Shown here piece by piece: positions 584 to 47,501 of a stretch of 52,082 bases of DNA. The stretch covers positions 1-52,082 of the forward strand of contig VHDG01000001.1 in assembly GCA_016871475.1 (NCBI GenBank), written 5' to 3'. The translations under genes were made by a program, and so were the position numbers. How positions within the stretch are numbered: position 1 is the first letter of the stretch; each line of letters begins with the position of its first letter. This DNA is from Verrucomicrobiota bacterium (GTDB lineage: Bacteria > Verrucomicrobiota > Verrucomicrobiia > Limisphaerales > UBA11320). The notes beneath the pieces are model-generated. The model made no database searches, had not been told where the DNA came from, and saw only the letters and a program-made list of their open reading frames with translations.

Positions 584-2071
584 TTACTCCGGCAGCGGCC
601 GGCCCTTGGTTTCGGGCGCGAACCGAACCGCCACGACCCCCACAAGGAACACGACGGCGAGCGTCATGGCTGCGGGACGAAGCGGCATGCCATGGCCCAA
701 TCCGGCATACAGCACCGCGAGCTTGCCCAGCGTGAGCGATCCAAAGGCGGTGAGATAGCGGGCCACGTTGTAGCAAATCCCCACCCCCGTGCTGCGAAGC
801 CGCGTCGGAAACAATTCGGGAAAATAGATGGCATAGCCGCCGTAGATCGACGCCACGCAGAAGCCGAGCAAAGGCAGCATCCAGTAAACATCGGAGCGTG
901 ACTTGAGCCACCCGAACGTGATCCAAGTCGCGCCGAGCGCCAGCAGAAAAGCCACAGCAAAGGCGCGCCGCCGTCCCACCCTTGAGGTAAACCAGGTGAA
1001 AGCATAAATGCCGAACATCCCGGCGATGTCCTGCAGCAACGTTCCTCGCCCCACGAGTTGATCGCTTTCGGCTTTCCAGGCTTTCACAATACCCGCTGTT
1101 GCCGCCGGGTCGGCCGCCACCAACGCCGCGAGTTCATTCACCGGCAGCGTGGCCACGCGGTCCCGCTCGGCTTCAGTCGTGAATTTGACGGTCTCAAGGA
1201 TGGTCTGCCGACGTTCTTCGACCAGTGAGCTGCGCACCAGTTCCGGCGTCCAATAGCCAATGCCCCAGAGGCCGGTCTGACCGGCCAGCGCCAGCAGAAG
1301 GCCGATGATGAGATGATAGCGGAGCGTGGCATTGCGAAAAATTTCCCTGAAATCACCGAGCTGCCGATGCAACTCGTCAGGTCCAGCGCCATCGGCCGGG
1401 CGGGTTTCATCGGCTCGCCGGCTCGCTTGGACCCAGCGGTCAGGCTCCTTGAGCCGAAAACGAATCACGATGACCAACAATGCGGGAAGCACGCCCAGCA
1501 GAAAAAGAACACGCCACCCAGCCCATCCGCCGACTTCCGATTCCGGCCCGAGATAAATGCTGATCCAGGAGGCGATCAAATGTCCCAACGCACCAAGGCC
1601 CTGCAAGAGACCGAGGCAATAGGGGCGAGCACGTTCCGGCACCACCTCTGCGACCAACGCGATGCCTGCGGCATATTCGCCTCCGATCCCCAAGCCGCAA
1701 AAAAAACGGTACGCAGCGAAATCCCACCATGACTGCGCGAAGCTGGACAGCCCCGTGAAGACCGCGTAAATGAGGATGGTGATCATCATCGTCTTGGTGC
1801 GCCCGAGGCGATCGCCCAGCAGACCGAAGAAGAGGCCTCCCGTGGCCCAGCCGAGAATGAAGATCATCGTCGCGTAACCGGCGTATTGCGTGATCGCGGA
1901 CTCGCTCAGGTGAGGCATGAGGTCCTGAAGCGCCGGCGTGCGGGCCAGGACAAAGAGCCGCTGATCCATGCCGTCGAACAACCAGCCCAGCGTGGCCACG
2001 GTGAGGACCCACCAATGGTAGCGGTTCAGCTCACGCCACCAGGGCCCCGCTGATTCGGAGGCCGCGCTCAT
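584..2071 (-). CDS. MFS transporter (12-TM major facilitator)
   Basis: 495 aa with alternating hydrophobic segments. MFS loop motif GLLGDRLGRTKTM after TM2, and FFCGLGIGGEYAAG...PERARP in the TM4-TM5 region. It is the last gene of the co-directional minus-strand block. Confidence 0.88.
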   Translation of the reverse strand: MSAASESAGPWWRELNRYHWWVLTVATLGWLFDGMDQRLFVLARTPALQDLMPHLSESAITQYAGYATMIFILGWATGGLFFGLLGDRLGRTKTMMITILIYAVFTGLSSFAQSWWDFAAYRFFCGLGIGGEYAAGIALVAEVVPERARPYCLGLLQGLGALGHLIASWISIYLGPESEVGGWAGWRVLFLLGVLPALLVIVIRFRLKEPDRWVQASRRADETRPADGAGPDELHRQLGDFREIFRNATLRYHLIIGLLLALAGQTGLWGIGYWTPELVRSSLVEERRQTILETVKFTTEAERDRVATLPVNELAALVAADPAATAGIVKAWKAESDQLVGRGTLLQDIAGMFGIYAFTWFTSRVGRRRAFAVAFLLALGATWITFGWLKSRSDVYWMLPLLGFCVASIYGGYAIYFPELFPTRLRSTGVGICYNVARYLTAFGSLTLGKLAVLYAGLGHGMPLRPAAMTLAVVFLVGVVAVRFAPETKGRPLPE

Positions 2072-2120: not shown

Positions 2121-3563
2121 TCACGCGCGAGTGAGACGTTCGAAGAGGTTGTTGTGGCCGCCCACGTCGGTGAGGCGTTGCTGGCGGCCCTCGAAGAGGT
2201 AGGTCAATCGTTCGTGATCGAGGCCCAGGAACGTCAGCAGGGTGGCGTGCAGATCGTGGACGTGAACTTTGTCTTCCACCGCGCGGAATCCGAACTCGTC
2301 CGTGGCGCCGATGGCCTTGCCGCCGCGAATGCCGCCGCCAGCCAGCCATGTGGTGAAGCCGTAGGGGTTATGGTCGCGTCCCAAACTGCCCTGCATGACG
2401 GGTGTACGGCCGAATTCGCCCGTCCAGACGACGAGCGTGTTTTCCAGCAGGCCGCGTTGTTTGAGGTCGGTGAGCAACGCTGCGATCGGCTGATCCACGC
2501 GTTCCGCATTGGACTCATGGTTCTTCGCGCATTCGCCGTGGCCGTCCCAATCGTTGTTGTAGAGCTGCACGTAGCGCACGCCGCGTTCGACCATGCGACG
2601 GGCGAGGAGGCACATGCGCCCGAACTTCGCGGTCGGCCCCTTGTCCACTCCATACAACTCGCGTGTCGCGGCAGGTTCCTTCGAGATATCGATCAAGTCC
2701 GGCGCGGCGGTTTGCATGCGGAACGCCAGTTCGTAGTTCGCGAGACGCGCTTCGAGACGCGTGTCGTCGGGTCGCTCGGTGTGATGACGCTGGTTCCAGC
2801 GATTCACGTAATCAAGCACGCGGCGTTGCTCCTCCTTCTCGAAGGGCGGGGTGAGGTTCTGGATCGGCGCACCTTCGGTGCGGATCACCGTGCCTTGGTA
2901 GGCCGCGGGCAGGAAGCCCGATCCGAAACTTACCGCTGCGCCGGCGCGGAATCCGCCGTCGGACATCACCATATAGGAGGGCAGATTGTCGCTCAGCGAG
3001 CCGAGTCCGTACATCACCCATGCGCCGGTGCTGGGATACCCCAGCTTCGCCGTGCCGCAATGCAACAGCCCGAGCGCCGGACCGTGGATGAAAGATTCGT
3101 GATAGCACGAGCGAATGACGGCCAAGTCGTCAGCGTGCCGGGCGACGTGCCGAAACAGATCCGACACCTCCAACCCGGATTGGCCGTATCGCTGAAACTT
3201 GAACGGCGAGCCCATCAGCCTGCCATCGGTGGCCTTCATGAATTGCAGCATGAGGCCGTCACTCTTGAAGCTGTCCGGCAGCGGCTTGCCGTCGTACTTC
3301 TGCAACTCAGGCTTGGGATCGAAGGTGTCCATGTGGCTCGGCCCGCCGGTCATGAACAGGAAAATCACGTGCTGTGCCTTGCTTGCAAAGTGGGGCAACC
3401 TCACGGACAACGGATTCCGCGAGAGCGCGCCGGTCGCGTGCAGATCCTCCCGCATCAACAACGAACCCAAAGCCACGGCGCCGAAGCCGTGTGCGGATTT
3501 CTGCAAAAATTCGCGCCGGTTCAGGGCAACTGCGTGGCGTCCACAAGTGTTGCTATTTTTCAT
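2121..3563 (-). CDS. DUF1501 family protein (sulfatase/alkaline-phosphatase superfamily), pair 1
   Basis: 480 aa. N-terminal twin-arginine-like NRREFLQKSAHGFGAVAL. Family-typical blocks FMTGGPSHMDTFDPKP, WDGHG, GEFGRTP and GRDHNP. Starts 6 bp after the stop of the DUF1553 gene. Confidence 0.92.
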   Translation of the reverse strand: MKNSNTCGRHAVALNRREFLQKSAHGFGAVALGSLLMREDLHATGALSRNPLSVRLPHFASKAQHVIFLFMTGGPSHMDTFDPKPELQKYDGKPLPDSFKSDGLMLQFMKATDGRLMGSPFKFQRYGQSGLEVSDLFRHVARHADDLAVIRSCYHESFIHGPALGLLHCGTAKLGYPSTGAWVMYGLGSLSDNLPSYMVMSDGGFRAGAAVSFGSGFLPAAYQGTVIRTEGAPIQNLTPPFEKEEQRRVLDYVNRWNQRHHTERPDDTRLEARLANYELAFRMQTAAPDLIDISKEPAATRELYGVDKGPTAKFGRMCLLARRMVERGVRYVQLYNNDWDGHGECAKNHESNAERVDQPIAALLTDLKQRGLLENTLVVWTGEFGRTPVMQGSLGRDHNPYGFTTWLAGGGIRGGKAIGATDEFGFRAVEDKVHVHDLHATLLTFLGLDHERLTYLFEGRQQRLTDVGGHNNLFERLTRA

Positions 3564-3569
3564 GGCGTG

Positions 3570-6500
3570 CTAGTCGATGTAACTGAACTCATTCAGATTC
3601 AAGAGCGACAGACAAAACTTCGTCAGCGCGGCGGCTTGCTCTTTGGGCAAGCGTTTCAACGCGTCGGGCATGGAGCCGGTTTCCTTGGTAACGTCGGCGG
3701 TCTTCGTGAAGGCATCGATCATTTCCAGGGATTCGCTTTTCTCGGTGGGGGTCGGAGCGCGCCCCAGCGCCCAGCGCCAGGCGCGGTCGATCCACGCCAC
3801 CGGGTCCAAGGCAATCGTTCGCTCGACGCGAAGCGCCTTGCCTATCACGCCACCGCCATGGGCGAGCGACTCGCAGTACTGCCAGCCCGCTGGCGTTGGA
3901 TTCGCAGCAAGAGAAAACGCCGCGGCCAAGTCGTTTGTCTGAGTGGCCGACGTAATGGTGAAATTCACTCCGACGAAGTCGCCTTGGAGGATTTCCAGGC
4001 GAAACGAGTCACCGGGGGCGCACGGGATCGCTTCCAACGCCTCCGCGCCCGCGCGCCCGCGCGCGAACCCGAACGGCCTGGACGAAGTTCCCGACGCGTC
4101 GTCGATGCCGGCTTCGGTGAGCAGATCACGGTCGTTCTTCCACAGCTTCCAACTTCCGCCACGGCCCAACTGGCGAATGTTCCACACGCCGCCCGTGATC
4201 TTCACGGGGCCGCCTGAATAGTCTGGTGGCGCCTTCCAGAGCACGCTCGACATGCCGTGCGTGATAACCGTCCCGATCGGATCGTCGAAGCTCGGCGTCG
4301 AGTGACCGTTGTCGACGCGCTTGGCCCAGCCGGCGTGGACGCCGGACGCTTTGCCTTCCCAGCCGGTCTGGCCGGGGCCGAAGTCCGGCTCGTTCCAGCC
4401 TTGACCCGGTTTGCCGACGAGCCGGGCGGCGAATTCGCGCGCCTGTTGGCCGGCGACTTTGTTGTTCATGAACCACAACGCTTGCGGCGCAACCGTCGTC
4501 ACGTCCCGGGCGGCGGCGCTCACAGAGTTGACCGGCAGATCGAAGACATCGAAGAGCGGGAATCGAAAGTTGCGGCGCGTCAAGATGTACAGACCGCGGC
4601 GCGTGTGATCTTTCGGATCGGCGGACACGATCCAGTTGCCTGACGGCATCTCGTCGCCCGTGAGCGGCGGCGCAACGGGCCGTCCGCCCAACGCAAGGTT
4701 CAGCGTGCCGGCCACGGCGTGCAGGTTGTCCCAGATCGTTTCGGCTTCGAGGCGCCGGCGATTCGCGCGCCAGAGCAGGCGGTTCTCGGGATCAGCGCGC
4801 AAATTCGCCTCATGCGCGAAGCGGCTGTCCATTTGATAGGCGCTCGACCGCAGGATCAGCCGATGCAACGTCTTCAGGCTCCAGCCTTGCGTCATGAACT
4901 CGACGGCCAGCCAATCGAGCAGTTCCGGGTGCGAAGGCAGCTCGCCCATCTTGCCAAAATCGTTCAGGGTCGCGACGATCCCGCGCTCGAAATGCCAGTG
5001 CCAGACGCGATTCACCATCACTCGGGCCGTGAGTGGATGATTCGTCTTCGTAAGCCACAGCGCGAGCTGCTTACGGCTGCCGAACGGGCCGGGTAACGCG
5101 CCCTCCCACCGACTGTTCTCTTTCAGCACTGCAGGTAAATCTGCGCCCACCGGATCACGCGCGCGCTTGATCTCGCCGCGATTCAAGATGTGAATGACCG
5201 GCACCAGCTCGGGTCGTTCGTGGCCCAGGACGCTGACGGTCGGGATTTCCATCAAGCCGTCGAACGGGCCGTCGTGCGCCGTGGACTCGGGCATGGATAG
5301 GACCGCGTTGGCGATGCCTTCGAGCAGACGCTGTTTCTTCTGCTTCTCTTCGGGTGTGAGCTCGCGGTCTCTCGTGTGCGCTTCAAAGAGGCGATACGCC
5401 TTGCGCGCTTCACTGGCGGCGATGACGCGTGGGTAATGCTGCTTGAAGTCCGCAATGCCCATCGCCGGAATGATCGGCGCCTCGACTTCGCGGCTGCCGG
5501 CGAAGACCGCTTGCAGAGCGAAGTAATCACGCTGCGTGAAGGGATCGAACTTGTGATCGTGACAGCGCGCGCAGCCGAAGGTTAGCCCCATGAAGGCGCT
5601 GGCGGTCGTATCGACCCAGTCCGTGAGCCTTTCGTAAGCAAGCTTGGGCGCGTCCATGTTCGACTCATGCACTTGCGGACCGAGCGTGTAAAAGCCCGTG
5701 GCGACGCGGGCCTCGAAGTGCCGCTTCTTGGCCTCGGGCAGTTGATACGAACCGTCGAGATCGAGGTTGTCCGGCCACAGCTCGTCGCCGGCAATCTGTT
5801 CCTGGACGAACCGATCATACGGCTTGTCGTCGTTGAACGAGTTCACGACGTAATCGCGATAGCGCCACGCGTTGCGGTAATAGATATCGGTCTCGTATCC
5901 GCCGCTGTCGGCGTAGCGCGCGACATCGAGCCAGTGCCGGCCCCAACGTTCGCCGTAATGTTTGGAGGCGAGCAGCGAATCGATCAGCTTCGGCCATGCT
6001 TCCGGCGACGCATCGTTGACAAAGGCCTCGACCTGCTCCGGTGTCGGCGGCAGACCAAGCAAATCAAAGTACGCGCGGCGAACCAGCGTGCGTCGATCCG
6101 CGCGCGGGGCGTGCGACAACCCTTTTTCCTCCAGTTTCGCGAGAACAAAGGCATCGATCGGCGTCGTGACCCACTTTGAAGCTTTGACGGCGGGAACCGC
6201 CGGGCGTCGCGGCGGGACCAACGACCAAAACCGTTTCGCTTCCTCCGTGATGGGCGAACTAGTTAAAACGGCGGCGTCCCCGCGTCGCGGATCCGGGGCT
6301 CCCATCTTCACCCAGGCCTCGAAATCGGCGATCTGCTGTTCGGTGAGCTTTCCGCCGTTTTTCCTGGGCGGCATTCGCAGGTCTTCGTCCGTGTAGCGAA
6401 TGGCTTTGATGAGCAGGCTTTGCTCGGGTGAACCGGGCACAAGCGCCGTGCCCGAATCGCCGCCTTTCATCCAGCCGTCGCGCGAGTCGAGCCGCAGGGC

Positions 6501-6674
6501 GGCCTTGAGGCTCTTGGCTTCGGCGCTGTGACATTCGTAACAGCGCTCGATGAGGACCGGACGGATCCGATTCTCGAAGAAGTCCAAATTCTCGCGCGTG
6601 GGTTCGGCCGCGCCAGCGCAAGCCAGGGAAGCAATCCCCACCCAAAGCAGTACGAGGTTTTCGCGTCTGTTCAT
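3570..6674 (-). CDS. PSCyt1 (c-type haem CxxCH) + DUF1549 (PSCyt2) + DUF1553 (PSD1) protein carrying an inserted A-module, pair 1
   Basis: 1034 aa. Signal peptide [27 protein letters not shown] at nt 6528-6542. DUF1549 block [24 protein letters not shown] and DUF1553 block [14 protein letters not shown] ~195-aa insert lies between FAARLVGK and [12 protein letters not shown]; the two paralogs in this window have only 8-9 aa at that position. Confidence 0.92.
3831..4400 (-). repeat. A-module, circularly permuted copy inserted in the DUF1553 domain
   Basis: It starts [70 protein letters not shown] and ends with [27 protein letters not shown]. In every other copy that last segment is N-terminal. 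Confidence 0.8.
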
Positions 6675-6758: not shown

Positions 6759-9700
6759 CTACCGGCGAATCAAGCGGTAAAACTTCGCCGCCATTGTTGG
6801 AGGAACCACGTGTGGATTGTTCGCGTTGGCCGAGTCGCTCCACGCTCCGGTCACAGCGTCCGCTTCTTGCAGCGTCCCGGCACCGGTCCACGAGATTTCG
6901 ACATTGGTTCCGGCGACTCGGATGGCCACGGTCAGCGGCGGATCAGGCGTGTAGGTCGCGATGCTGAATTGCACCGACACGAAGTCGCCTTGGAGAATCT
7001 CGAGCCGGAACGAATCACCCGCCGAGTAAGGGAGGTCCAGCAACGCCGCCGCGCCGCCGCTGCCGGAGTTCAAGCCCTTGGGCGACGTCGAGGTGCCGGA
7101 GCTGTCATTGATTGTGCCTTCGGACAACAGATTCGTTTCGTTCCCCCACAGCCGCCATAGTCCGCTGCGCCCGAATTGGCGGATGTTCCAGAATCCGCCG
7201 GCCAGACACGCGACGCCGCCGGGATCGTTCGGAGGCGCCGTCCACAACACACTGGTCGGCCCGTGCGTCAACACGCTGCCGATCGGGTCATCGTAGTTGG
7301 GAGTGGCGTTGCCGTTGTCGATGCGCTTGGCCCAACCCGCATGAGCGCCCGCGCGCGCGCCGACCCAGCCGGTCTGGCCCGCCCCGAAGTCGGGCTGGTT
7401 CCAATTCTCAACGGCCGCGCCCACAGGCCCGCCGCCGTTGCCGAGCGATTCGCTGTATTGCCAGCCGGTCGCCGTTGGATTCGCGTCGAGAGCAAAGTCA
7501 GCGACCAAGTCATGAACCTTTCTCGTTGTGAGCGCGAAGTCCACGGCGACAAAATCGCCGGCCAGAATCTCGAGGCGGAACGTATCGCCCGCCCCGTAGG
7601 CAATGCCGCGCAGCGCACTTTCACCGCCGCTGCCCGTCGCAAAACTCTTGGGCGCAGCGGAAGTGCCTTGCGAATCGTCGATTATGCCTTCGCTGATCAA
7701 GATCGTGTCGTTGTGCCACAACCGCCACGTGCCGGAGCGACCGAAGTGGCGGATATTCCACAAACCGCCGCTGATGTCGGCCACCCCGCCGCGATCATTG
7801 GCCGGGGCCTTCCAGAGAACGCTGGTGGCTCCGTGCGTCAGGATCGTGCCGGGCGGATCGTCGTAGCTCGGCGTTGCGTTGCCGTTGTCCACTCGCCGGG
7901 CCCAACCCGCATGAGCGCCCGCGCGCGCGCCGACCCAGCCGGGCTGGTTCGCGCCGAAGTCCGGCTGATTCCAGTTTTGAACCACAGGACCGACCGGCCC
8001 GCCGCCATTGCCGAGCGACTCGCTGTATTGCCAGCCATCGCTCGTCGGATTCGCGTCGAGTTTGAAGTCGGCCGCGAGGCTGTGCCGCGTGCCTTTGATG
8101 GCCGGCGGCGGCGCCTTCACGGTGAGCGTGGCCTCGTCGCTCAGCACGACGCCGACGGCATTGCTGACCACGGCGCGGTACTGGCCCGCTTGCGCGAAGG
8201 AGACACCCGTGAGCGTCAGGGTGGAACTCGTCTGGCCCGGCAAATCCGCGCCTTTAAATTGCCATTGAAAGCTGATCGGGGACGTGCCGAGGGCTCGGAT
8301 GCTGAACGTCGCGTCGCCGCCGGCGATCACCGTTTGATCGTCGGGATGGCGCGAAACGATCGGATCAGCCGGCACGGGATACGTGCTGATCCGCAGTCTC
8401 ACGCCCACGAAATCTTCTTCCAGCACTTCCAGCCGAAACGTATCGCCGGCTCGGTAACGAATGCCCCGCAACCCTCCCGGGCCACTGTCGCCTGCCGCCA
8501 GATTCAACGGATTGCCGGACGCGCCGGAATCGTCGTTGATCGCGCCGCTGGTGATCAGGATCGTGTCGTTCTTCCACAGCCGCCACGTGCCGCTGCGATT
8601 CAAGCGGCGCAAATTCCATAACCCGCCACTGAGGTCGGCCAGGCCGCCGGGGTCGTTGCCGGGCGCGCGCCACAGCAAGCTGGTTCTGCCGTGGGTCATG
8701 ATCGTGCCTTCCGGATCGTCCAGCGGAGGCGTGGGATTGCCGTTGTCAACGCGCCGCGCCCAACCGGCGTGCGCGCCCGGCGGAGACGCACCTTGCCAGC
8801 CGGGTTGACCGCCGCCGAAGTCCGGCTGATTCCAGTTTGGCGTGACGGGACCCACGATGCCGCCGCCGTCCGCCAGCGCGCGGCTGTACTGCCAGCCAGT
8901 CGAAGTGGGATTCGCCTCGAGGCTGAAATCGGCGCTGGCATCGTGCAGTTGCCGGGTGATGATAGTCATGTTGAGGGCGACGAAATCGTTCACGCCGACG
9001 CTTGCGACTTCGAAGCGAAAGGAATCTCCCGCCTGGTAAGGAATGTTGCGCAACGCATTCGGGCCGCTCGAGCCGTTCGCAAAATTCAGGGGCGAGCGTG
9101 AATCGCCGGAATTGTCATCGACCACTCCGTCGGTCAGGAGCTCCGTGTCATTTTTTAAGATGCGCCAGTTACTCGGCCGGTTGAGATGGCGGATGTTCCA
9201 AAGACTGCCGCGGATGTCCGCGACGCCGCCGCGGTCATCCGGGGGCGCCGTCCACATCACGCTGGTCGGCCCGTGCGTAATGATCGACCCGACCGGGTCG
9301 TCATACGTGGGCGTCGGACTGCCGTTATCGATGCGCTTGGCCCAACCCGCGTGGGCGCCGGCGCGCACGCCGACCCAACCCGGTTGGCTGGGGCCGAAGT
9401 CCGGTTGATTCCAATTCGGAACCACATTTCCGACCGGCCCGCCGCCGTTGGCGATCGATTCACTGTATTGCCAGCCGGTCGCCGTCGGATTCGCGTCGAG
9501 GCTGAAGTCGGCTGACAAATCATGACGCGCGCCGCTGACTGAGTCGGGCCGGGGCGTGACTTGAAGGTTCGCCGGCAGGCTCGTGCGCGAGCCGTTTCCG
9601 TTGCTCACCTGCACCGTGTAGGTGCCCGAGCGCTCGAACGCCACGTCGTTCAGCGCGAGCGACGCCCCGGTTTCACCGGCGATCTCGACGCCTTCGTAAA

Positions 9701-11390
9701 ACCACTGGTAGCTGAACGGCGCGGCGCCCACGGCGGCGACGGTGAACGTCACGTCGTCGCCTTCGTTGACCTTTTGGCTGAACGGATGCGTGGCGATCGC
9801 GGGATCGGGGCCTGTCGTCGAAGTAGTGATCGTAAACTGCACGCCCTGCAAATCGCCGTACGGCCCCATCAAACTTCCCCCGGGGCCGGACAATGGCAGA
9901 ATCTCCAACCGAAACGAATCTCCCGGTGAATAAGGAACTCCCGCTAATTCCATCGCCGTGGGCGCTCGGTCAAAACTGTTCGGCGTGTCGGACGAACCGC
10001 GGCTCACCACTTGTTCAGCCAGCAGGAACATGTCGTTTTTCCAAATGCGGTACTTCTGTCCGCGAGCGTTGCGTTCGATCGACCAGATTCCTCCGCTGAT
10101 CGTCGCGAACCGGTCCGTCTCACCGGCTGCGGCGGTCCACTTGACGCTGGAAGTTCCGTGCGTCATCACGGCGCCGAAAGGCGCGTCGAGGTTCGGCAAG
10201 TCCTTCGCGTTGTCGATGCGTTTGGCCCAGCCGATGAACGGCGTCGCCGGAATGCCCAGCCAGCCGGGTTGATTCGCGCCGAAAACGCTTTCGACCCAGT
10301 TAAACGAGACCGGTCCCACCACCCCGCCGCCCGCGTCGAGAGCTTGCGAGTATTGCCAGCCGCGCGAGGTGGGATTGGCCTGGAGCGTGAAGTCGTTGGT
10401 CAAGTCATGCACGCTCGGCGTCACCGGCCCCGGCGCATCGATCACCAACACGCCCGCCCGACTCGTCCGGCTCCCACCCGGACTCGTGACGACAACACGG
10501 TAGCTGCCTCCGTCGGCTGGACTGACCGACGCAATGGAGTGCGACGGGCCCGTCGCCCCCGGGACATCCACGCCATTCTGTTGCCATTGGTAGGTGAGCG
10601 GCGCCGACCCGGACGCCGTGGCCGAGAAAGTGACCGCGCTGCCCGCGACCACAAGCTGGCTTTGCGGATGGGCTGAGATAAACGGATCCGTGGTCGCCGT
10701 GGTCGTGATCGTGAAACGAACCGCAACGAAATCGTTCTGTAGAATTTCGAGCCGAAAGAAATCGCCCGGGTGATACGGAATGTCCCGCAAATCGGCGCTG
10801 CCACCGCTGCCGGACTCCAGGCTCAACGGCTGATCAGAAGTGCCGGTGAGATCGTCGATCGTGCCTTGTGACAGCACCGAGTCGTTCTTTAAAAGTCGCC
10901 ACGTGCCGCTGCGATTGAAGTGGCGAATATTCCAAAGCCCGCCGCTGATCGTTGCGAACCGATCGGTGTCGCCGGGCGGCGATTTCCACAGAACGCTGGT
11001 GTTGCCGTGCGTCAGGATCGTCCCGACGGGGTCGTCGTAGGTGGGCGTGTCATTGCCGTTGTCGATGCGCAAGGCCCAGCCCGCGTGCGCCCCGGAGCGC
11101 ATCCCGAGCCAACCTGGCTGCCCCGGCCCGAAATCGGGCGCGTTCCAATTGTCCCCGCGCGCGCCGACTGGTCCGCCGCCATTGGCGACCGACTCGCTGT
11201 ACTGCCAGCCGCCGGACGTCGGGTTGGCGTCGAGACTGAAATCGGCGGCCACGTCATGCACCGCCCCTGGGAGGTGCAGCGGTGAGAAAATGTTCGCCAA
11301 TAGTCCGGCTAGGACGGCCGCCATTGCTCTCGGGATTATTGCTTTCGATTGCGTCTTCATAATTAATATGTGGTTTTCTGAGTTATTCAC
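6759..11390 (-). CDS. Secreted repeat protein: 6 A-modules + 3 Ig-like domains + C-terminal FYRL domain
   Basis: 1543 aa. Hydrophobic N-terminus; an alternative start MKTQSK lies at 11360. Architecture is A-Ig-A-Ig-A-A-Ig-A-A-Cterm. The Ig-like domains carry the PLxYQW..G.Y.V.VSN pattern. It ends ..AAKFYRLIRR. Confidence 0.9.
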   Translation of the reverse strand: MNNSENHILIMKTQSKAIIPRAMAAVLAGLLANIFSPLHLPGAVHDVAADFSLDANPTSGGWQYSESVANGGGPVGARGDNWNAPDFGPGQPGWLGMRSGAHAGWALRIDNGNDTPTYDDPVGTILTHGNTSVLWKSPPGDTDRFATISGGLWNIRHFNRSGTWRLLKNDSVLSQGTIDDLTGTSDQPLSLESGSGGSADLRDIPYHPGDFFRLEILQNDFVAVRFTITTTATTDPFISAHPQSQLVVAGSAVTFSATASGSAPLTYQWQQNGVDVPGATGPSHSIASVSPADGGSYRVVVTSPGGSRTSRAGVLVIDAPGPVTPSVHDLTNDFTLQANPTSRGWQYSQALDAGGGVVGPVSFNWVESVFGANQPGWLGIPATPFIGWAKRIDNAKDLPNLDAPFGAVMTHGTSSVKWTAAAGETDRFATISGGIWSIERNARGQKYRIWKNDMFLLAEQVVSRGSSDTPNSFDRAPTAMELAGVPYSPGDSFRLEILPLSGPGGSLMGPYGDLQGVQFTITTSTTGPDPAIATHPFSQKVNEGDDVTFTVAAVGAAPFSYQWFYEGVEIAGETGASLALNDVAFERSGTYTVQVSNGNGSRTSLPANLQVTPRPDSVSGARHDLSADFSLDANPTATGWQYSESIANGGGPVGNVVPNWNQPDFGPSQPGWVGVRAGAHAGWAKRIDNGSPTPTYDDPVGSIITHGPTSVMWTAPPDDRGGVADIRGSLWNIRHLNRPSNWRILKNDTELLTDGVVDDNSGDSRSPLNFANGSSGPNALRNIPYQAGDSFRFEVASVGVNDFVALNMTIITRQLHDASADFSLEANPTSTGWQYSRALADGGGIVGPVTPNWNQPDFGGGQPGWQGASPPGAHAGWARRVDNGNPTPPLDDPEGTIMTHGRTSLLWRAPGNDPGGLADLSGGLWNLRRLNRSGTWRLWKNDTILITSGAINDDSGASGNPLNLAAGDSGPGGLRGIRYRAGDTFRLEVLEEDFVGVRLRISTYPVPADPIVSRHPDDQTVIAGGDATFSIRALGTSPISFQWQFKGADLPGQTSSTLTLTGVSFAQAGQYRAVVSNAVGVVLSDEATLTVKAPPPAIKGTRHSLAADFKLDANPTSDGWQYSESLGNGGGPVGPVVQNWNQPDFGANQPGWVGARAGAHAGWARRVDNGNATPSYDDPPGTILTHGATSVLWKAPANDRGGVADISGGLWNIRHFGRSGTWRLWHNDTILISEGIIDDSQGTSAAPKSFATGSGGESALRGIAYGAGDTFRLEILAGDFVAVDFALTTRKVHDLVADFALDANPTATGWQYSESLGNGGGPVGAAVENWNQPDFGAGQTGWVGARAGAHAGWAKRIDNGNATPNYDDPIGSVLTHGPTSVLWTAPPNDPGGVACLAGGFWNIRQFGRSGLWRLWGNETNLLSEGTINDSSGTSTSPKGLNSGSGGAAALLDLPYSAGDSFRLEILQGDFVSVQFSIATYTPDPPLTVAIRVAGTNVEISWTGAGTLQEADAVTGAWSDSANANNPHVVPPTMAAKFYRLIRR
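6954..7520 (-). repeat. A-module copy M6 (aa 1291-1479), directly abutting M5
   Basis: [100 protein letters not shown]. Confidence 0.85.
7524..8090 (-). repeat. A-module copy M5 (aa 1101-1289)
   Basis: DFKLDANPTSDGWQYSES..NWNQPDFGANQPGW..HAGWARRVDNGNATPSYDDPPG..THG..GGLWNIRHFGRSGTWRLWHND..GDTFRLEILAGDFVAVDFALTT. Confidence 0.85.
8382..8951 (-). repeat. A-module copy M4 (aa 814-1003), directly abutting M3
   Basis: DFSLEANPTSTGWQYSRA..NWNQPDFGGGQPGW..HAGWARRVDNGNPTP..THG..GGLWNLRRLNRSGTWRLWKND..GDTFRLEVLEEDFVGVRLRIST. Confidence 0.85.
8955..9527 (-). repeat. A-module copy M3 (aa 622-812)
   Basis: DFSLDANPTATGWQYSES..NWNQPDFGPSQPGW..HAGWAKRIDNGSPTPTYDDPVG..THG..GSLWNIRHLNRPSNWRILKND..GDSFRFEV. 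Confidence 0.85.
9822..10412 (-). repeat. A-module copy M2 (aa 327-523), the most divergent copy in this protein
   Basis: [80 protein letters not shown], plus an extra ~10-aa loop. Confidence 0.8.
10701..11261 (-). repeat. A-module copy M1 (aa 44-230)
   Basis: DFSLDANPTSGGWQYSES..NWNAPDFGPGQPGW..HAGWALRIDNGNDTPTYDDPVG..THG..GGLWNIRHFNRSGTWRLLKND..GDFFRLEILQNDFVAVRFTITT. Confidence 0.85.
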
Positions 11391-11473: not shown

Positions 11474-14400
11474 TTAACGCTCTCTGAGCCGGAAGAAGCG
11501 AGTGGGACCGCTCAGGCTCTGTCCAACGTGGATCTCATTGCCCACTTGCGTTTGGGGTCCGCTCGCTCCGATCCAAGGGCCCTGGATGGCCGTGGCCGCT
11601 TCGAGAATGTGATTCGTGAACGGGGCGGCCCAACTCAGTTGGAGCGATAGCCCCTGCGCCCGCGCGATCAGCCTCGGACGCGGAACAACGGTGAACGTCG
11701 CCTCGGCAAGATCAGTCCAGTTTCCGTTCGCGAGCGTCTGGCCCACGGGAAGGATGGCGGCGGCCCTCAGTATTCCGGCCTGCTGAATGGAAATCGGTTC
11801 GGTGTAAAGTTGTCGACTCAGCGAAAGTCGCGGGTCAGAGCCGTCCAACGTGACGTAAGCGAGCCAGCCGGGTTGCGTGGTGAGGCTCACCGTGGTCCCC
11901 GGCTGCACTTCGCCGTTCGCCAGCGAGAGCGCGGGCGTCTTGTCCGGAGACGGCAGGCCCGTCGAAGCGAGCGCGAGGAAGTTCGAGAGAGAGCGGCGTT
12001 GGCTCGTCAACACGTTAGTGGCTTCGTTAATGCTGGTGCGGATCGTACTCCAACGAGCCAGGTCCGCCGTGCGGTCTGGCGTCATGAGCGTGAACAGTTC
12101 CCGGATGCGCGGAATGATGACCTCGAGCTTCATGACGTCGCGAACCATCTTGCGCAGGGTGAGCAGATAGATGCGGCGCAAGGTGGGATTCGTCGAGACC
12201 CGTTGATACAGCTTGCCGCGTTGCCACGCCGGATTGTCGCCGCCGCCGCCGTCGCCGTAGAGGGCGCGGATTTGGCCCACGCGCCCGAAGGTGAACCCGG
12301 AATCGAAGTCGTAGCCGAGCATCTTCCACTTGCCGCCCGGCTCGCCGGGAAGAAACAGGTAGTAGTTGTGGCCGGTGAAGTCATCGATGTTCATGCACAC
12401 GTTGAGCGCCCAGCGCTTGAACCATTGGTCCAGGTCCACGTGCGCATCGAGCCACGGCAGCAACTGGGCATCGGACATGTCGTTCAGCGCATCGACCAGT
12501 TCGCGCAGCGAGTCCGGCGGCTCGAGAGGACGCACCTTCTTGTTATACGCGCCCCAATAGTCGTAATCCGTGACGATCTGATTGTGGAACAGGTCGGAGT
12601 TCTTCCACTGCGCGGGCGTTTCGACCGTTCGGCCTTTGTACACCTCGCCGCCTTCATGGTGGCCGTGCTTGCCCAGCCAGCGTCCGGTCGGGCTTTCGAA
12701 GCCGATGTACACGCCCCAGAACGAGCCGTTGATGTGCAAACGCACCAGTTCGTGTTGCAAGTTATCAATGCCCGCTGAGTCAAACAGCTCGAAGGCGATC
12801 TTCTGCTCCAGCGGAATCGAGTACATCGTGTCGTAGGTGCGGTTGGTCTTGTAGAGATGGTCCTTGTTGAATTGGAATTTCCACGGACGCTTCGGATCGT
12901 CGCGCGAACGGCGCCCGCGATACCGCGCGCCCACGTGCGGATAGGCGATGTGGTCGATCACCAGCGAGCAATCGACGTAGTCGTCCGAGCGCGGATTGGC
13001 ATTGAGCCTGTTCAGATTCGCCGTCGGGATGAACAGGTGAAACAGCGTGCTGCGCGTATTGATCTCGCCGTTATAGTGGAAATAAGCCTGCGTGGGCGAT
13101 GGGTCGTCTGCGTAAGGAAACTGTGTCGTCACGCCGCGCGTGTCGGTGGCCACGACCTGGTAATGCACGAGTGTTTGGGACGCCCTGGCAGGAACCCAAA
13201 CGCCGAAGACACCATCGTTCGCCACACCGTCGCCGTGCAGGCCATCATCGAACATCTCGAGCCACGTCTCGTTCGTCGCGGCGTTCATCATGGTCTTAAG
13301 CTGGACCGACTCAAGCGGCGCTTCGCCTTGGACGCGGGCGGTGACCAACACGTCGTTCGTCGAGGCGGGCTTATCGGGAAAGTGCGTTAAGCCATCGACC
13401 AACGGTGGCAATGGCTCGGCTCCCACCGAATTGAGCCGGCCCGGGGTGCCGCAGCCGATGAACCCGGCCACCGGCGGCGCGATGATGGGCGGCGCCACCG
13501 ATTCGCCAAACGCCAGCGAAATATCGTAGCCGACGTAATCGTCGGAGCGATTCGGCGCCAGCGGCGTTGCGCCGAATTTGAGGACATCACCGGCCACGAC
13601 GTTCACGATCAACGCGCTCGGCCCCTTGCTTCCCGTTTCGAATGACAGCGGTGAGCGCGAGTTGATGGTGAGGTTGGTGTTGAATAAATCGCCGGCGGTG
13701 ATTTCGGTGTTGTTGAGTTTGATGTACCAGTGCTGACTGCGTCCGATGCGGCGCAGGAGCCAAACACCGCCCGAGATGGTCACGCGTTGGCTGGAGGATG
13801 CGGTCCACCAAACTTCGGACGGACCGTACGACATGACCGAGCCTGTCGGGAAATCATACTCCGGACGTGGGGCGCCGGGCGCTTTCGACGAGCCGGTGCT
13901 TTTGCACCAGCCCGGAGTGCCGGTCGTGCCGCCAGCGGTCCACGCCGGCTGATTCGTGCCGAGATCGGCCGTGCGCCAGCGGGCAACGCGCGCGGTGATG
14001 ACCGTGCCGGTCCGATGCCGGTAACTCCATCCGTAGCTGGGGTTCAGCCAGTCGCTCCAGTCTTTCGCCAAGTTGTGAATTCCGCCGGAGGCCGCTATGA
14101 GCGGCGAGAACCCCGCTCCGGCAAATCCAATTGTAACCGCGTCGGCTCCCTTCTGAAAACTCGCGCGGCACGTGATCGTGTAACTCTGGCCGATCGTGAT
14201 ACCGGGGACGTTCGCCACACCGACGTAGTTGGACTCGCCATCGCCCGCACCTTGAGCAATCACCAGAAAACTCCCCCTGCCATCGAACGCTGCGTCGTCC
14301 GTTCGGCGTGACGTCGAATGGTTCCCGACCTTGGTCCAGCCGGAGTCGTCCGGCTCGAAGGAACCATTCGCCAGCAGGTTGGCGCCGCCGACTGCCGGAC

Positions 14401-15643
14401 GAACTTCCACTTGATCCACCAGCCATTCGCCTGCGCCGTTCAGCGCGACGAAGAGCTTGTCCGACATCGCGATGCCCGTCGCCGTGATCGTTTGCCACGC
14501 CACATGGGCTTGGGCCAATCTGCCGCGGCTGGCGCGCCAATTCGCCGCCGTGCTGTTATCCCTGTGAGGATTGATGCATTCGAGCGAGTAGCCGAATTCG
14601 TCCGGTCCAACCGGCCAGGGATGCCGGTCGTTGTAGCGCACCGTGTCCGCCACCCAGCCGAGCGCGTCGCGGAGCGTGAGTCGTTCGCCGCCGTCATCGA
14701 GTACGCCGACGAACGGCCCGACGACATTGGTGATGCCGAAGCGCAACGTTACCGCTTGCGGCACGGCCGCCACGACGAGATGCGCGCCCGCGGCCACCAC
14801 CGTGCCGGGCGGAAACGTGAACGCGATACCTTCAGTGAAAGCCCAGCCCGCGAGGTCCACCGGGTGCGTGCCGCGATTGAACAGCTCGACGTATTCGCCG
14901 AGTTCGTCGTCGCCCGCTTCGTAATATTGACCGGCATTCACGGCGTCGAACTTCTCGCGCAGCTCTTCGCGCTGAGGGAGGTACATGATTTCGTTGATGA
15001 CGATGGCGCTCCCACCGGGAACGCCGGGCTTGTTGGACACCCCGGGCGAATAGGGTTGCCCCACGCTCCAATTGGCCGGGGTATTGTTGTCAACGTCCGG
15101 CGAGATCAGTTCGAGGGACGCACCACCGCCATCGGCTTCACTGGGCCATGGAGCCGAGTCGTCGTACGAAACGAAATCGATCATTCGGCGAGGGCTGCCA
15201 TTGTCCTTGAGCCTGATCGTGTCGTCGCCATTGTCGAGGCGTCCGACGTAATTCCCCAAGATGTTCGTGACGCCGTAGAAAGCACCTGCTGCCGTGGCGT
15301 CGCGCGCAATGACCAGATACGCGCCGCCGAGCAAGATCGTTCCATCGGGAAACGCAAAATCCACACCGCCATCGACGATCCAGCCGGTCAAATCCACCGG
15401 CGTGCCGCCGCGGTTGTAGAGTTCAATGAACTCATCGCCGGTGTTGTTCGGGTCTTGGTGATACAGAATCTCGTTGATTACCACGTCGGTCGGTCCTGCG
15501 ATGAGCCGACTCCCTCCAAACGACATCAACATCAGGCAAACGACGGCAACGCCCTGAATGATAGAGCGAAGCCGAGCACATCGAGCGGTCGAGCGGACGC
15601 CCGCGCAACAATCGAGTGACAGGGGCAACAACTTCACGTTCAT
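11474..15643 (-). CDS. Secreted lamin-tail-domain (LTD x2) / CotH kinase-like protein containing a divergent A-module
   Basis: 1389 aa. LTD motifs VVINEILYHQDP..EFIELYNRG and IVINEIMYLP..YVELFNRG. CBM-like segment NLLANGSFEPDDSGW. CotH-type region YRGRRSRDDPKRPWKFQF..VRLHINGSFWGVYIGFE. CHB_HEX_C-like segment YVTLDGSDP..YTEPISI. It ends ..TRFFRLRER. Confidence 0.9.
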   Translation of the reverse strand: MNVKLLPLSLDCCAGVRSTARCARLRSIIQGVAVVCLMLMSFGGSRLIAGPTDVVINEILYHQDPNNTGDEFIELYNRGGTPVDLTGWIVDGGVDFAFPDGTILLGGAYLVIARDATAAGAFYGVTNILGNYVGRLDNGDDTIRLKDNGSPRRMIDFVSYDDSAPWPSEADGGGASLELISPDVDNNTPANWSVGQPYSPGVSNKPGVPGGSAIVINEIMYLPQREELREKFDAVNAGQYYEAGDDELGEYVELFNRGTHPVDLAGWAFTEGIAFTFPPGTVVAAGAHLVVAAVPQAVTLRFGITNVVGPFVGVLDDGGERLTLRDALGWVADTVRYNDRHPWPVGPDEFGYSLECINPHRDNSTAANWRASRGRLAQAHVAWQTITATGIAMSDKLFVALNGAGEWLVDQVEVRPAVGGANLLANGSFEPDDSGWTKVGNHSTSRRTDDAAFDGRGSFLVIAQGAGDGESNYVGVANVPGITIGQSYTITCRASFQKGADAVTIGFAGAGFSPLIAASGGIHNLAKDWSDWLNPSYGWSYRHRTGTVITARVARWRTADLGTNQPAWTAGGTTGTPGWCKSTGSSKAPGAPRPEYDFPTGSVMSYGPSEVWWTASSSQRVTISGGVWLLRRIGRSQHWYIKLNNTEITAGDLFNTNLTINSRSPLSFETGSKGPSALIVNVVAGDVLKFGATPLAPNRSDDYVGYDISLAFGESVAPPIIAPPVAGFIGCGTPGRLNSVGAEPLPPLVDGLTHFPDKPASTNDVLVTARVQGEAPLESVQLKTMMNAATNETWLEMFDDGLHGDGVANDGVFGVWVPARASQTLVHYQVVATDTRGVTTQFPYADDPSPTQAYFHYNGEINTRSTLFHLFIPTANLNRLNANPRSDDYVDCSLVIDHIAYPHVGARYRGRRSRDDPKRPWKFQFNKDHLYKTNRTYDTMYSIPLEQKIAFELFDSAGIDNLQHELVRLHINGSFWGVYIGFESPTGRWLGKHGHHEGGEVYKGRTVETPAQWKNSDLFHNQIVTDYDYWGAYNKKVRPLEPPDSLRELVDALNDMSDAQLLPWLDAHVDLDQWFKRWALNVCMNIDDFTGHNYYLFLPGEPGGKWKMLGYDFDSGFTFGRVGQIRALYGDGGGGDNPAWQRGKLYQRVSTNPTLRRIYLLTLRKMVRDVMKLEVIIPRIRELFTLMTPDRTADLARWSTIRTSINEATNVLTSQRRSLSNFLALASTGLPSPDKTPALSLANGEVQPGTTVSLTTQPGWLAYVTLDGSDPRLSLSRQLYTEPISIQQAGILRAAAILPVGQTLANGNWTDLAEATFTVVPRPRLIARAQGLSLQLSWAAPFTNHILEAATAIQGPWIGASGPQTQVGNEIHVGQSLSGPTRFFRLRER
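13508..14083 (-). repeat. Divergent A-module-like segment (aa 521-712 of the LTD-CotH protein)
   Basis: It keeps the order and spacing of the module landmarks: DWSDWLNPSYGWSY.., LGTNQPAW, TPGW, FPTGSVMSYGPSEVWWTA, ISGGVWLLRRIGRSQHWYIKLNN, and GDVLKF near the end. Confidence 0.5.
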
Positions 15644-15946: not shown

Positions 15947-17440
15947 TCAGTTGATCAAGTCAGTGGTCACCGTCGCGCTCGTGATGTCCGCATCGGTCAA
16001 CGTTTCATCGCGACCAAGGTGTTGAAAGGCCAGTCGGCGATGATCCAAGCCCATCTGCCAGAGGACCGTGGCGTGCACATCACTCACTCCCATCTTCTGA
16101 CTTGTCACTTGGTAGCCCAGCTCGTCCGTGTGGCCATAGACGAAACCGCGCTTGAATCCGCCTCCGGCCAGCCAGACAGCGCCTGCATGCCGGTTATGAT
16201 CACGTCCGCCCTGTCCTTGCGTGATGGGCAACCGCCCGAACTCTCCGCCCCACAGCACCACGGTCGAATCAAGCAGCCCCCGGGCTCGCAAGTCTCGGAT
16301 CAGCGCGGCGCTCGGCGCATCCGTCGCGGCACAGGCCTTGGCGAGACCGCCTTTCACGTCTCCGTGATGATCCCAATTCGCGTCTCGGACCGGGGCAAAC
16401 ACCAACACGAAGCGCACGCCGGCTTCGACCAGTCGCCGCGCCATGAGTAGCCGGCGCGCATAGCCCGCTCGAGCCGGATTGGAACTGTCCAAACCATAGA
16501 GCTGCCGGGTGGCGGCAGACTCGCGGGAAAGGTCCGCGACGTCCACGGCTTCGAGTTGCATGCGGGCGGCTAGCTCATAGTTGCGAATCCGCGCGTCGAG
16601 TTCGGCCTCGTTGGGATTCCGGTTCTGATGCCGTCGGTTAAGCTGGGCCAGGAACTCGAGGTTTCGGCGTTGCACGGCGGCGGGCACGGGCACGGCGGGG
16701 GAAAGGTTTTGCACGGGTGTTCCCTTGGGGTTGAACTCCGTGCCACCAAAGATCGGCGACAACCAGCCCGGTTGATACATCAGTTTGCCGCTGGTGGGAA
16801 ATCCCTCGGGATCCCGCAGGACGACGAACGCGGGCAGATTCTGATTCTCGCTGCCCAGGCCGTAGGCGATCCATGCGCCCAGCGTCGGACGTCCGGGCAG
16901 AATCTTGCCACTGGCGAATTGGATGATCGCTTCGGTGTGATTATTGTTGTCGCTCACCATGGAGCGCACCAGGCAGATTTCGTCCGCCACGCCACCGATC
17001 TCGGGCAGCAGCTCGGACAATTCCATGCCGCAATTGCCGTAGCGCCGAAACGGATAGACCGAGCCGAGCAGCTTGTTGGTGTTGCCTTGCTGAAACGTTT
17101 CAAAGTTGCCGCCATGCGCTTCGCCATTGCGACGCTCCAGCTCCGGCTTGCGATCGAACAGGTCCATGTTGCTCGGCCCGCCGGTCTGCATCAGCATGAT
17201 CATTGCCCGAGCTGGTGCGCGGGACTGGGGCGCTCGCGGACGCAGGTCGAGATGCGGCCGGCTGCTCGCCCGTCCAGTGCTCTCACCCGCCAGATACGAC
17301 AGGGCGAAGGCCCCCAGCCCAAGGCCACAACGATGCAGCAGATCGCGACGGGACAACGGGCCCAACTCGGCCCGTGCAAGGAGTGAGGAGAGATCGCTCG
17401 TGGCTGACGGCGCCGATCGGGGTGAGAGAGGAGAGATCAT
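15947..17440 (-). CDS. DUF1501 family protein, pair 2
   Basis: 497 aa. Twin-arginine-like LSRRDLLHRCGLGLGAFAL. Blocks MQTGGPSNMDLFDRKP, WDHHG, GEFGRLP and GRDHNRH. Starts 21 bp after the upstream DUF1553 gene. Confidence 0.92.
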   Translation of the reverse strand: MISPLSPRSAPSATSDLSSLLARAELGPLSRRDLLHRCGLGLGAFALSYLAGESTGRASSRPHLDLRPRAPQSRAPARAMIMLMQTGGPSNMDLFDRKPELERRNGEAHGGNFETFQQGNTNKLLGSVYPFRRYGNCGMELSELLPEIGGVADEICLVRSMVSDNNNHTEAIIQFASGKILPGRPTLGAWIAYGLGSENQNLPAFVVLRDPEGFPTSGKLMYQPGWLSPIFGGTEFNPKGTPVQNLSPAVPVPAAVQRRNLEFLAQLNRRHQNRNPNEAELDARIRNYELAARMQLEAVDVADLSRESAATRQLYGLDSSNPARAGYARRLLMARRLVEAGVRFVLVFAPVRDANWDHHGDVKGGLAKACAATDAPSAALIRDLRARGLLDSTVVLWGGEFGRLPITQGQGGRDHNRHAGAVWLAGGGFKRGFVYGHTDELGYQVTSQKMGVSDVHATVLWQMGLDHRRLAFQHLGRDETLTDADITSATVTTDLIN

Positions 17441-29475: not shown

Positions 29476-29535
29476 GAATATTCTTAGCCCAAAGTGCATC
29501 TGACCATTCCGGATGCTTTTGATTGCCAAAAATAC

Positions 29536-33149: not shown

Positions 33150-33414
33150 AAACGGATCACACCCTCCGGCCTGGCCGCGCCACAATACTTTCCCCCTTAA
33201 GACACAGGACAGACCCTGCACTCTGTTCACTTCGTTTTGTTACTAAGAATCACTTTTGGGTTGACCAGAGTTCTGGTCCATGCTATTCACTCACTCAATC
33301 GCCCCTCTCCCGAGCTCTTTTCGCGCAGGCCCCTGCGATCCTGTGTCGCCAGTCTGGGAATGCCTTATCGGTCGGGAAGGGGACAGACCGCTCAGGTCGA
33401 TAACGCACAATCAG

Positions 33415-47470: not shown

Positions 47471-47501
47471 CCGCACAACCCGACCAGCAACACCATCGCC
47501 C

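Follow-up and report, generated by a model that had tools for sequence, protein, structure and literature searches.

Gene units that combine PSCyt2-PSD1 proteins with DUF1501 proteins are among the most expanded systems specific to Planctomycetes and Verrucomicrobia, and their function has gone without explanation since 2004. Published surveys call the function of PSCyt/PSD1/DUF1501 units unknown and report that some PSCyt/PSD1 proteins carry an accessory domain, namely Laminin_G_3, F5_F8_type_C, CBM_6, NPCBM, or PA14 (Kamneva et al., 2012, PMC3542564; He et al., 2017, PMC5615132). Here, a stretch of 52,082 nucleotides (nt) from contig VHDG01000001.1 of a Verrucomicrobiota bacterium (hereafter the window) is examined, in which a module of ~190 amino acids (aa) occurs six times in one predicted secreted protein and once more, circularly permuted, inside the PSD1 domain of the protein encoded beside it. 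Like the surveyed systems (PMC3542564; PMC5615132), this locus pairs PSCyt1/PSCyt2/PSD1 with a DUF1501 protein predicted to be exported by twin-arginine translocation and adds a beta-sandwich domain that is either embedded or adjacent, and the module shares its slot with CBM_6, a documented PSCyt accessory (PMC5615132). Unlike the reported accessories, the module is none of the five domains listed above, it stands within PSD1 as a circular permutant, and it is also amplified in separate neighboring proteins. The module is unnamed and widespread, and its fold and probable role are of a familiar kind. Unannotated beta-sandwich domains are common in environmental genomes.

The six-module protein is encoded on the minus strand by open reading frame (ORF) 6759..11390 and is 1543 aa long. 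A regular-expression scan and a MAFFT alignment delimit the six modules (M1 to M6; Table 1), which are 43-71% identical to each other in pairwise comparison, and a hidden Markov model (HMM) derived from all six returns every copy at 1e-92 to 1e-105. The outlier is M2, the most divergent copy, in which 12 aa are inserted before the last strand. The original prediction for this stretch had described six full-length copies with an ordered set of landmark motifs that together make up about three quarters of the protein; the scan, the alignment, and the HMM recover all of these landmarks, and the measured share is ~75%. Its account of the remainder as three immunoglobulin (Ig)-like spacers and a C-terminal FYRL domain was likewise borne out, with Pfam Ig_3 (E of 2e-28, three stretches), I-set, and Ig_2 matches confined to the spacers, the modules themselves having no Ig match, and with a C-terminus that reads KFYRLIRR. 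A Pfam scan identified no catalytic domain in the six-module protein.

The six copies are long diverged. Their DNA identity is 52-70%, the longest exact match is 44 nt, no tandem repeat was reported by Tandem Repeats Finder (TRF), and identity at third codon positions is 0.28-0.55 and nearly saturated, which indicates that the duplications are old. Antisense ORFs at 7176, 9186, and 10920, put forward earlier as near-identical, do exist, with identities of 43-59% in protein and 72-78% in DNA that make them similar rather than near-identical. Moreover, an ortholog of the six-module protein (P0015, 1530 aa, 69% identical) with the same six modules and spacers is encoded at a syntenic locus (L005) in another metagenome-assembled genome (MAG) of the Verrucomicrobia, and each module in the window is nearest to the P0015 module at the same position (66-79% on the diagonal versus 39-68% off it). 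Together, these data indicate that the array is old, that it was inherited as a unit, and that it was not homogenized by gene conversion, that each position of the array is conserved in its own right, and that the domain is real and under selection. A recent DNA repeat or an assembly artefact was considered and rejected in view of the 52-70% DNA identity, the lack of a TRF array, and the positional orthology. It should be noted that the label of the L005 contig (CAMAVD010000143.1), 'Akkermansia muciniphila', looks wrong, since this locus shares synteny with the window and includes genes for PSD1 and CotH, which are unexpected in that species. The ortholog also bears on the start of the six-module protein, which is probably the ATG at 11360 (MKTQSK...), since P0015 begins at the equivalent methionine; an exact look-up of the 1543-aa protein with its GTG start returned no identical sequence on record.

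The module could not be assigned to a described family, as had been claimed at the outset: it has zero matches in Pfam-A, NCBIfam, and PDB sequences, and a confident full-length match to a described family was found in none of the three. Nine window copies had zero Pfam-A matches at E up to 10, and 43 relatives searched against Pfam-A at E up to 1 returned sorting-tail matches and scattered single-member chance matches, with no model of a carbohydrate-binding module (CBM) among them. For window copies and relatives alike, no NCBIfam model fell on the module, and matches to PEP-CTERM families were all below cut-off and mainly on the tail. A profile search of PDB sequences gave nothing better than E of 0.058 (5cd6_A, a non-CBM chain); this match, obtained with a narrow profile, vanished with a broad one and was therefore treated as chance. 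Literature searches returned no description of the domain, nor of a PEP-CTERM jelly-roll CBM.

The module is not peculiar to the six-module protein. An exhaustive HMMER search of 1.84 billion representatives of clusters formed at 50% identity retrieved 1025 representatives at E<=1e-3, of which 715 reach E<=1e-10 and 178 reach E<=1e-30; a word-indexed search yielded few relatives (14, then 63). These matches, at least 1025 cluster representatives, are mostly small surface proteins of the PEP-CTERM type. In a typical relative, 220-380 aa long (mostly ~250 aa), a signal peptide precedes a single module and a sorting tail, which is PEP-CTERM in 24 of 43 aligned members and otherwise IPTL-CTERM, VPDSG-CTERM, a type IX secretion system Por_Secre_tail, FlgD_ig, or a FYRL domain. 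Most relatives thereby share the layout of small PEP-CTERM (exosortase-sorted) proteins in NCBIfam (PepA, THxN, NF038129), that is, a signal peptide, a beta-rich domain of ~190 aa, and PEP-CTERM. The variety of anchors attached to one domain suggests that the module would be displayed at the cell surface. All source names found for members read 'hypothetical protein', except one that refers to the tail domain. Larger relatives add a pectate-lyase-like beta-helix (P0023), NPCBM and GH42M (P0035), or Laminin_G_3 (P0045), and further partner domains include CarboxypepD_reg, PKD, FG-GAP, He_PIG, and DUF11.

Unlike the small PEP-CTERM proteins, the six-module protein ends in a FYRL-type domain of ~60 aa and has no PEP-CTERM match. 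No Pfam or NCBIfam model matches this domain, which may be a lineage-specific sorting or anchoring domain given that it stands where relatives carry PEP-CTERM. A similar C-terminal domain of ~60 aa, with the pattern ...W.G.G.L...........W......P......[KR]F[FY]R[LI]..., closes four large secreted proteins in the window (at 6759-6941, 11474-~11680, and 24025-~24230, all on the minus strand, and at ~37080-37269 on the plus strand), and several relatives also end in a FYRL-type domain in the position of the PEP-CTERM tail.

The original prediction had counted nine copies of the module in the window; the present count is twelve in four proteins, ten of them clear and two divergent. The six-copy HMM finds four copies beyond the array (Table 1), and a family-wide HMM with HHalign adds the two divergent ones, designated 'B-type' modules, which are distantly related to the others within one superfamily (HHalign probability of 98.1%, E of 1e-13). 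The motifs of these two read VWNWALDY...GAWSYGYD...NGRTQ(E/D)F...VQGFLG(I/V)EL. Both lie in ORF 33280..37269, which is identical to GenBank MBM3844667.1 ('hypothetical protein FJ405_00075') and which also has two clear modules; this ORF additionally encodes three Ig domains and a GH115_C-like domain at aa 1106-1266. One further copy, in ORF 11474..15643, separates an LTD from a CotH domain, a layout that is repeated in an ortholog (P0046).

The fold of the module was predicted for two members of the family. The AlphaFold2 model of M5, made from a 15-sequence alignment, is an all-beta sandwich of ~11-12 strands with almost no helix (predicted local distance difference test score, pLDDT, of 93.6; predicted template modelling score, pTM, of 0.90), and that of relative P0162, which is 32% identical to M5 and was modelled from 48 sequences, has the same strands and a C-terminal anchor helix (pLDDT of 90.4). 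When the M5 model was compared with PDB structures using Foldseek, the top ranks were held by CBM6E (8j3x, E of 1.5e-3), a CBM35-containing xylanase (4qaw), CBM61 (2xom), CBM36, and CBM6, followed at lower ranks by a laminin LF domain and GH101 accessory domains; the P0162 model matched an agarase CBM6 (2cdo, E of 6e-4), CBM35/36, Cry-toxin domain III, and C1q/cerebellin. The Foldseek probability was 1.00 for 8j3x and 2cdo, and 7ay3 was also among the best-ranked CBM structures. A close solved relative was not found in the PDB with either model, and a Foldseek search of viral structures (BFVD) returned nothing at E<=1e-3, just generic tail-fibre sandwiches. The two predictions reproduce one fold class, that of a galactose-binding or CBM6/35-type beta-jelly-roll. 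While the central claim of the original prediction, that the module is unassigned, stands, its exclusion of a CBM (like the near-identity of the antisense ORFs) does not, for both models are nearest to CBM6, CBM35, CBM36, and CBM61 jelly rolls, weak as the similarity is.

On balance, these observations tip toward the module being an autonomous, surface-displayed, non-catalytic beta-jelly-roll domain with a binding function, probably for glycans, that is multiplied for avidity and serves as a recognition accessory of the PSD1/DUF1501 system. Like CBM6, CBM35, CBM36, and CBM61, the module is predicted to be an all-beta sandwich and is found as a repeated accessory in secreted multidomain proteins. 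Glycan binding is further supported by the carbohydrate-active cores that stand beside the module in some relatives (P0023, P0035, P0045), and accessory CBM_6, Laminin_G_3, NPCBM, and F5_F8_type_C domains in PSCyt/PSD1 proteins (PMC3542564; PMC5615132) occupy the slot that the module would fill. With glycan binding as its most likely function, the module would work like a new CBM family. Elsewhere in bacteria, it is usually present as a single copy between a signal peptide and a surface sorting tail, and in this lineage of Verrucomicrobia it has been multiplied into the six-copy array, with Ig-like spacers and a FYRL end typical of the lineage. An array of this kind would allow multivalent binding to a polymeric ligand at the cell surface.

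Several observations weigh against this glycan-binding interpretation. The signal peptide of the six-module protein is putative, having been assigned by eye only, and a conserved gene neighborhood was not found for ordinary single-module relatives at four loci. No CBM sequence model in Pfam-A matches the module, which at ~190 aa is longer than CBM6, CBM35, CBM36, or CBM61 domains (~120-140 aa) and has its own motif set (NPxG-W-Y, QPxW, THx, RxxGRS, and GD...DFVGV). Template modelling (TM) scores to the best CBMs are weak (0.28-0.40 on the query and 0.45-0.52 on the target, hence <=0.52), as are E-values of 6e-4 to 1.5e-3, and these values indicate a generic jelly-roll class rather than homology to CBMs. 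The unusually rich set of nearly invariant polar residues described below could likewise belong to an enzyme or a metal site. Finally, PSCyt proteins have been predicted to be periplasmic and not surface-exposed (He et al., 2017, PMC5615132).

The same structural matches bear on a rather unlikely alternative, in which the module would lack glycan specificity and act at the surface as a scaffold or adhesin, binding protein or building a matrix or S-layer, the six-module protein then being a structural fibre or an adhesin between cells or between cells and particles. The C1q/cerebellin and Cry-toxin domain III jelly rolls listed by Foldseek are binders of proteins or receptors, the Ig-like spacers and long modular architecture are adhesin-like, the partner domains FG-GAP, PKD, He_PIG, and DUF11 fit this role, and PEP-CTERM proteins are tied to floc and biofilm matrix, as the NCBIfam name PepA implies. 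However, CBMs hold the best E-values and the largest share of both Foldseek lists from the PDB, some relatives are fused to carbohydrate-active cores, and in other genes it is CBMs that occupy the slot of the module in PSCyt/PSD1 proteins.

Across the family, at ~30% identity, the polar or tyrosine positions N13, Y21, Q48, D76, H85, R113, R117, and D168 (M5 numbering) are nearly invariant, as are P14, W19, W51, W62, W92, and W110, and the rough consensus reads YDLxADWSDxxNPNGxWSY...QPAWA...PxWFKS...D...GDVVVHT...NVxWTSP...ISGxVWxxRDIGRSNxWxL..N...L..G...SGD...R..PF....GSGG...L....V..GD.I.L......GDFVGVNLTI. Sets of Arg, Gln, His, and Tyr serve in jelly-roll lyases of the PL7 type. The His, Tyr, Gln, Arg, and Asp residues conserved in the module could be imagined as the active site of a small jelly-roll enzyme, such as a polysaccharide lyase or hydrolase. 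That the module is such an enzyme is very unlikely, however, as no jelly-roll-catalytic lyase or glycoside hydrolase is among the top 50 PDB matches of either model, no Pfam catalytic family matches, six catalytic domains in tandem would be unusual, and the module stands as an accessory beside other catalytic-like cores.

The copy in the PSD1 protein ties the module to the PSCyt2-PSD1/DUF1501 system. This insert, which breaks the PSD1 (DUF1553) model at about position 213 of 244, matches HMM positions 31-190 and then 2-35 and is therefore circularly permuted. Over 195 aa, it aligns colinearly, at 57% identity and with a single gap, to a stretch of the six-module protein (aa 1133-1327) that runs from position 32 of M5 across the junction of M5 and M6 to position 36 of M6. 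This colinearity matches the excision of one domain-length from a tandem pair; permutation by duplication would account for it, and the descent would have run from tandem to insert. Permuted domains are explained in textbooks by duplication followed by terminal truncation. Compared with that model, the present case differs in that the tandem arrangement and the permuted product stand side by side in one locus and in that the permuted form serves solely as an insertion within a different domain. Indeed, all 12-13 permuted copies among 214 collected proteins are in PSD1 proteins wherever the sequence suffices to tell, and no permuted copy was found in the non-PSD1 proteins of that collection.

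The PSD1 gene with the insert is followed by a DUF1501 gene in the window, and the same order was observed at five further MAG loci (L006-L010), two of them labelled Pirellulaceae and the others Planctomycetaceae, Chitinophaga, and an unlabelled metagenome chromosome. The locus labelled 'Chitinophaga sp.' (L008) is probably mis-binned, with its PSD1/DUF1501 pair. In addition, a short contig labelled Pirellula (L011) retains just the end of the insert adjoining DUF1501, and L005 of the Verrucomicrobia carries the insert in a PSD1 gene inside which the sequence stops. Four other loci in two sets (L001-L004) have a split form. At L001, the PSD1 protein shares 57% identity with the insert-bearing PSD1 protein of the window over aa 33-757 and lacks the insert of ~195 aa; at L001 and L002 (8001-11290), a non-permuted single-module gene with a PEP-CTERM tail (P0003, 260 aa, and P0004) overlaps the PSD1 start codon. 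DUF1501 follows at L001-L003, and L004 ends inside the PSD1 gene. That the module is fused to PSD1 in some genomes and encoded by an adjacent gene in others suggests a functional and probably physical partnership with PSD1. The module would then have been recruited into this system, which is specific to the Planctomycetes-Verrucomicrobia-Chlamydiae (PVC) group, as either a permuted PSD1 insert or a separate overlapping gene, and it may supply ligand recognition.

A narrower and more tentative proposal, which is possible at best, is that the PSCyt2-PSD1/DUF1501 machinery recognizes its substrate through the module and that the six-module protein and the LTD-module-CotH protein are outer capture devices for the same ligand. 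This proposal would build on a physical complex of module and PSD1, which is indicated by the fused and split arrangements together with the confinement of the permuted form to PSD1 inserts. The PSD1 protein with the module also has a PSCyt1 domain with a CxxCH motif, and the least probable of the explanations considered here is that the module binds a metal or cofactor for this cytochrome-containing protein, for example in metal delivery or in binding a redox substrate, via its conserved His and Asp residues. In addition to the fusion or adjacency of the module to a protein with a CxxCH PSCyt1 domain, the full-length six-module protein sums 29.6 bits to DUF1775/YcnI (PF07987), a copper-binding sandwich family. 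Yet this score is an artefact because it adds up six sub-threshold repeat matches, zero stretches pass, and single modules have no match at E up to 10, so that a DUF1775/YcnI identity was rejected; further, most family members have no cytochrome link and no cupredoxin or YcnI structure is among the fold matches.

With at least 1025 clusters, the module represents a sizeable unnamed domain family outside curated libraries, for which the predicted fold and the motif set suffice to seed a Pfam or CAZy-style entry. It also offers an experimental handle on the PSCyt2-PSD1/DUF1501 system and, if the substrate-recognition proposal is true, its ligand would reveal the target of this PSD1/DUF1501 subfamily. 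Further, the adjoining tandem and permuted insert would make a clear case, found in nature, of a circular permutation that arose through duplication. If the module is merely a generic sandwich spacer, naming it would be a routine improvement in annotation.

Table 1. Positions in the window of the six-module protein and its parts, the other module copies, and adjacent genes.
Feature	Coordinates	Strand	Basis
Major facilitator superfamily (MFS) transporter	584..2071	-	
DUF1501 gene with twin-arginine leader, partner of PSD1 with permuted module	2121..3563	-	Pfam and leader reading
PSD1 with permuted module	3570..6674	-	
Circularly permuted module inside the PSD1 domain of the PSCyt1-PSCyt2-PSD1 protein (ORF 3570..6674)	3834..4421	-	HMM
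Six-module protein, whole ORF: signal peptide, six modules, three Ig-like spacers, C-terminal FYRL domain	6759..11390	-	
C-terminal domain of ~60 aa ending KFYRLIRR, plus stop codon	6759..6941	-	Sequence reading
Module M6, aa 1292-1483, directly abuts M5	6942..7517	-	HMM and alignment
Module M5, aa 1102-1291, copy used for structure model	7518..8087	-	HMM and AlphaFold2
Ig-like spacer 3, aa 1009-1101	8088..8366	-	Pfam
Module M4, aa 815-1008	8367..8948	-	HMM and alignment
Module M3, aa 622-814, directly abuts M4	8949..9527	-	HMM and alignment
Ig-like spacer 2, aa 528-621	9528..9809	-	Best Ig_3 stretch aa 530-597
Module M2, aa 327-527	9810..10412	-	HMM and alignment
Ig-like spacer 1, aa 238-326	10413..10679	-	Pfam Ig_3/I-set
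Module M1, aa 44-237	10680..11261	-	HMM and alignment
Putative N-terminal leader, aa 1-43	11262..11390	-	Sec-type n/h/c pattern ending ...LHLPGA|VHD, read by eye
LTD-module-CotH protein	11474..15643	-	
Divergent module (~35% identity to M5) that separates LTD from CotH in ORF 11474..15643	13514..14080	-	HMM
DUF1501	15947..17440	-	
PSD1	17462..20800	-	
Divergent B-type module 1, ORF 33280..37269	33493..34047	+	Family HMM (independent E of 1.5e-8); HHalign
Module copy, ORF 33280..37269	34324..34890	+	HMM
Divergent B-type module 2, ORF 33280..37269	35164..35721	+	Family HMM; HHalign
Second module copy, ORF 33280..37269	35722..36297	+	HMM

The minus-strand genes from PSD1 (17462..20800) to the MFS transporter follow one another, from high to low coordinates, as PSD1, DUF1501, LTD-module-CotH protein, six-module protein, PSD1 with permuted module, DUF1501, and MFS transporter. 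Three PSCyt2-PSD1 and DUF1501 pairs are present within 52 kb, the third DUF1501 gene being at 31674-33149 on the plus strand, and the three DUF1501 proteins have twin-arginine-like leaders (RREFL, RRDLL, and RRAFL). Nearby genes in the window encode HpcH/HpaI aldolases, a 2-hydroxyacid dehydrogenase, an aldehyde dehydrogenase, cupins, an esterase, and a 'cyclase'. The HpcH/HpaI aldolase and 2-hydroxyacid dehydrogenase recur at L001 and L002, together with an Ldh_2 dehydrogenase and a GntR/FCD regulator, and L002 also has a 'cyclase'. These neighbors are compatible with the catabolism of sugar acids or deoxy-sugars and in this respect fit the glycan-binding interpretation, a circumstantial match.

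Two giant secreted proteins in the window combine LTD (lamin-tail) and CotH-kinase-like domains (11474-15643 and 24025-30513, both on the minus strand). The second of these ORFs, which ends at 30513, overlaps a plus-strand PSCyt2-PSD1 ORF that starts at 29494 by ~1 kb (29494-30513), and at least one of the two starts is probably over-extended. 'CotH' matches on the strand opposite PSD1 genes were dismissed as compositional noise of antisense ORFs. A 741-aa ORF at 47208-49433 on the plus strand, with no Pfam match, overlaps the aldehyde dehydrogenase gene (45980..47470) and may be a spurious ORF of high GC content or wrongly started. Lastly, a minus-strand ORF at 38120-39304 joins an FG-GAP repeat to a Peptidase_S74 'chaperone of endosialidase' domain. 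Such C-terminal elements are characteristic of phage tail fibres, and here one stands among bacterial genes.

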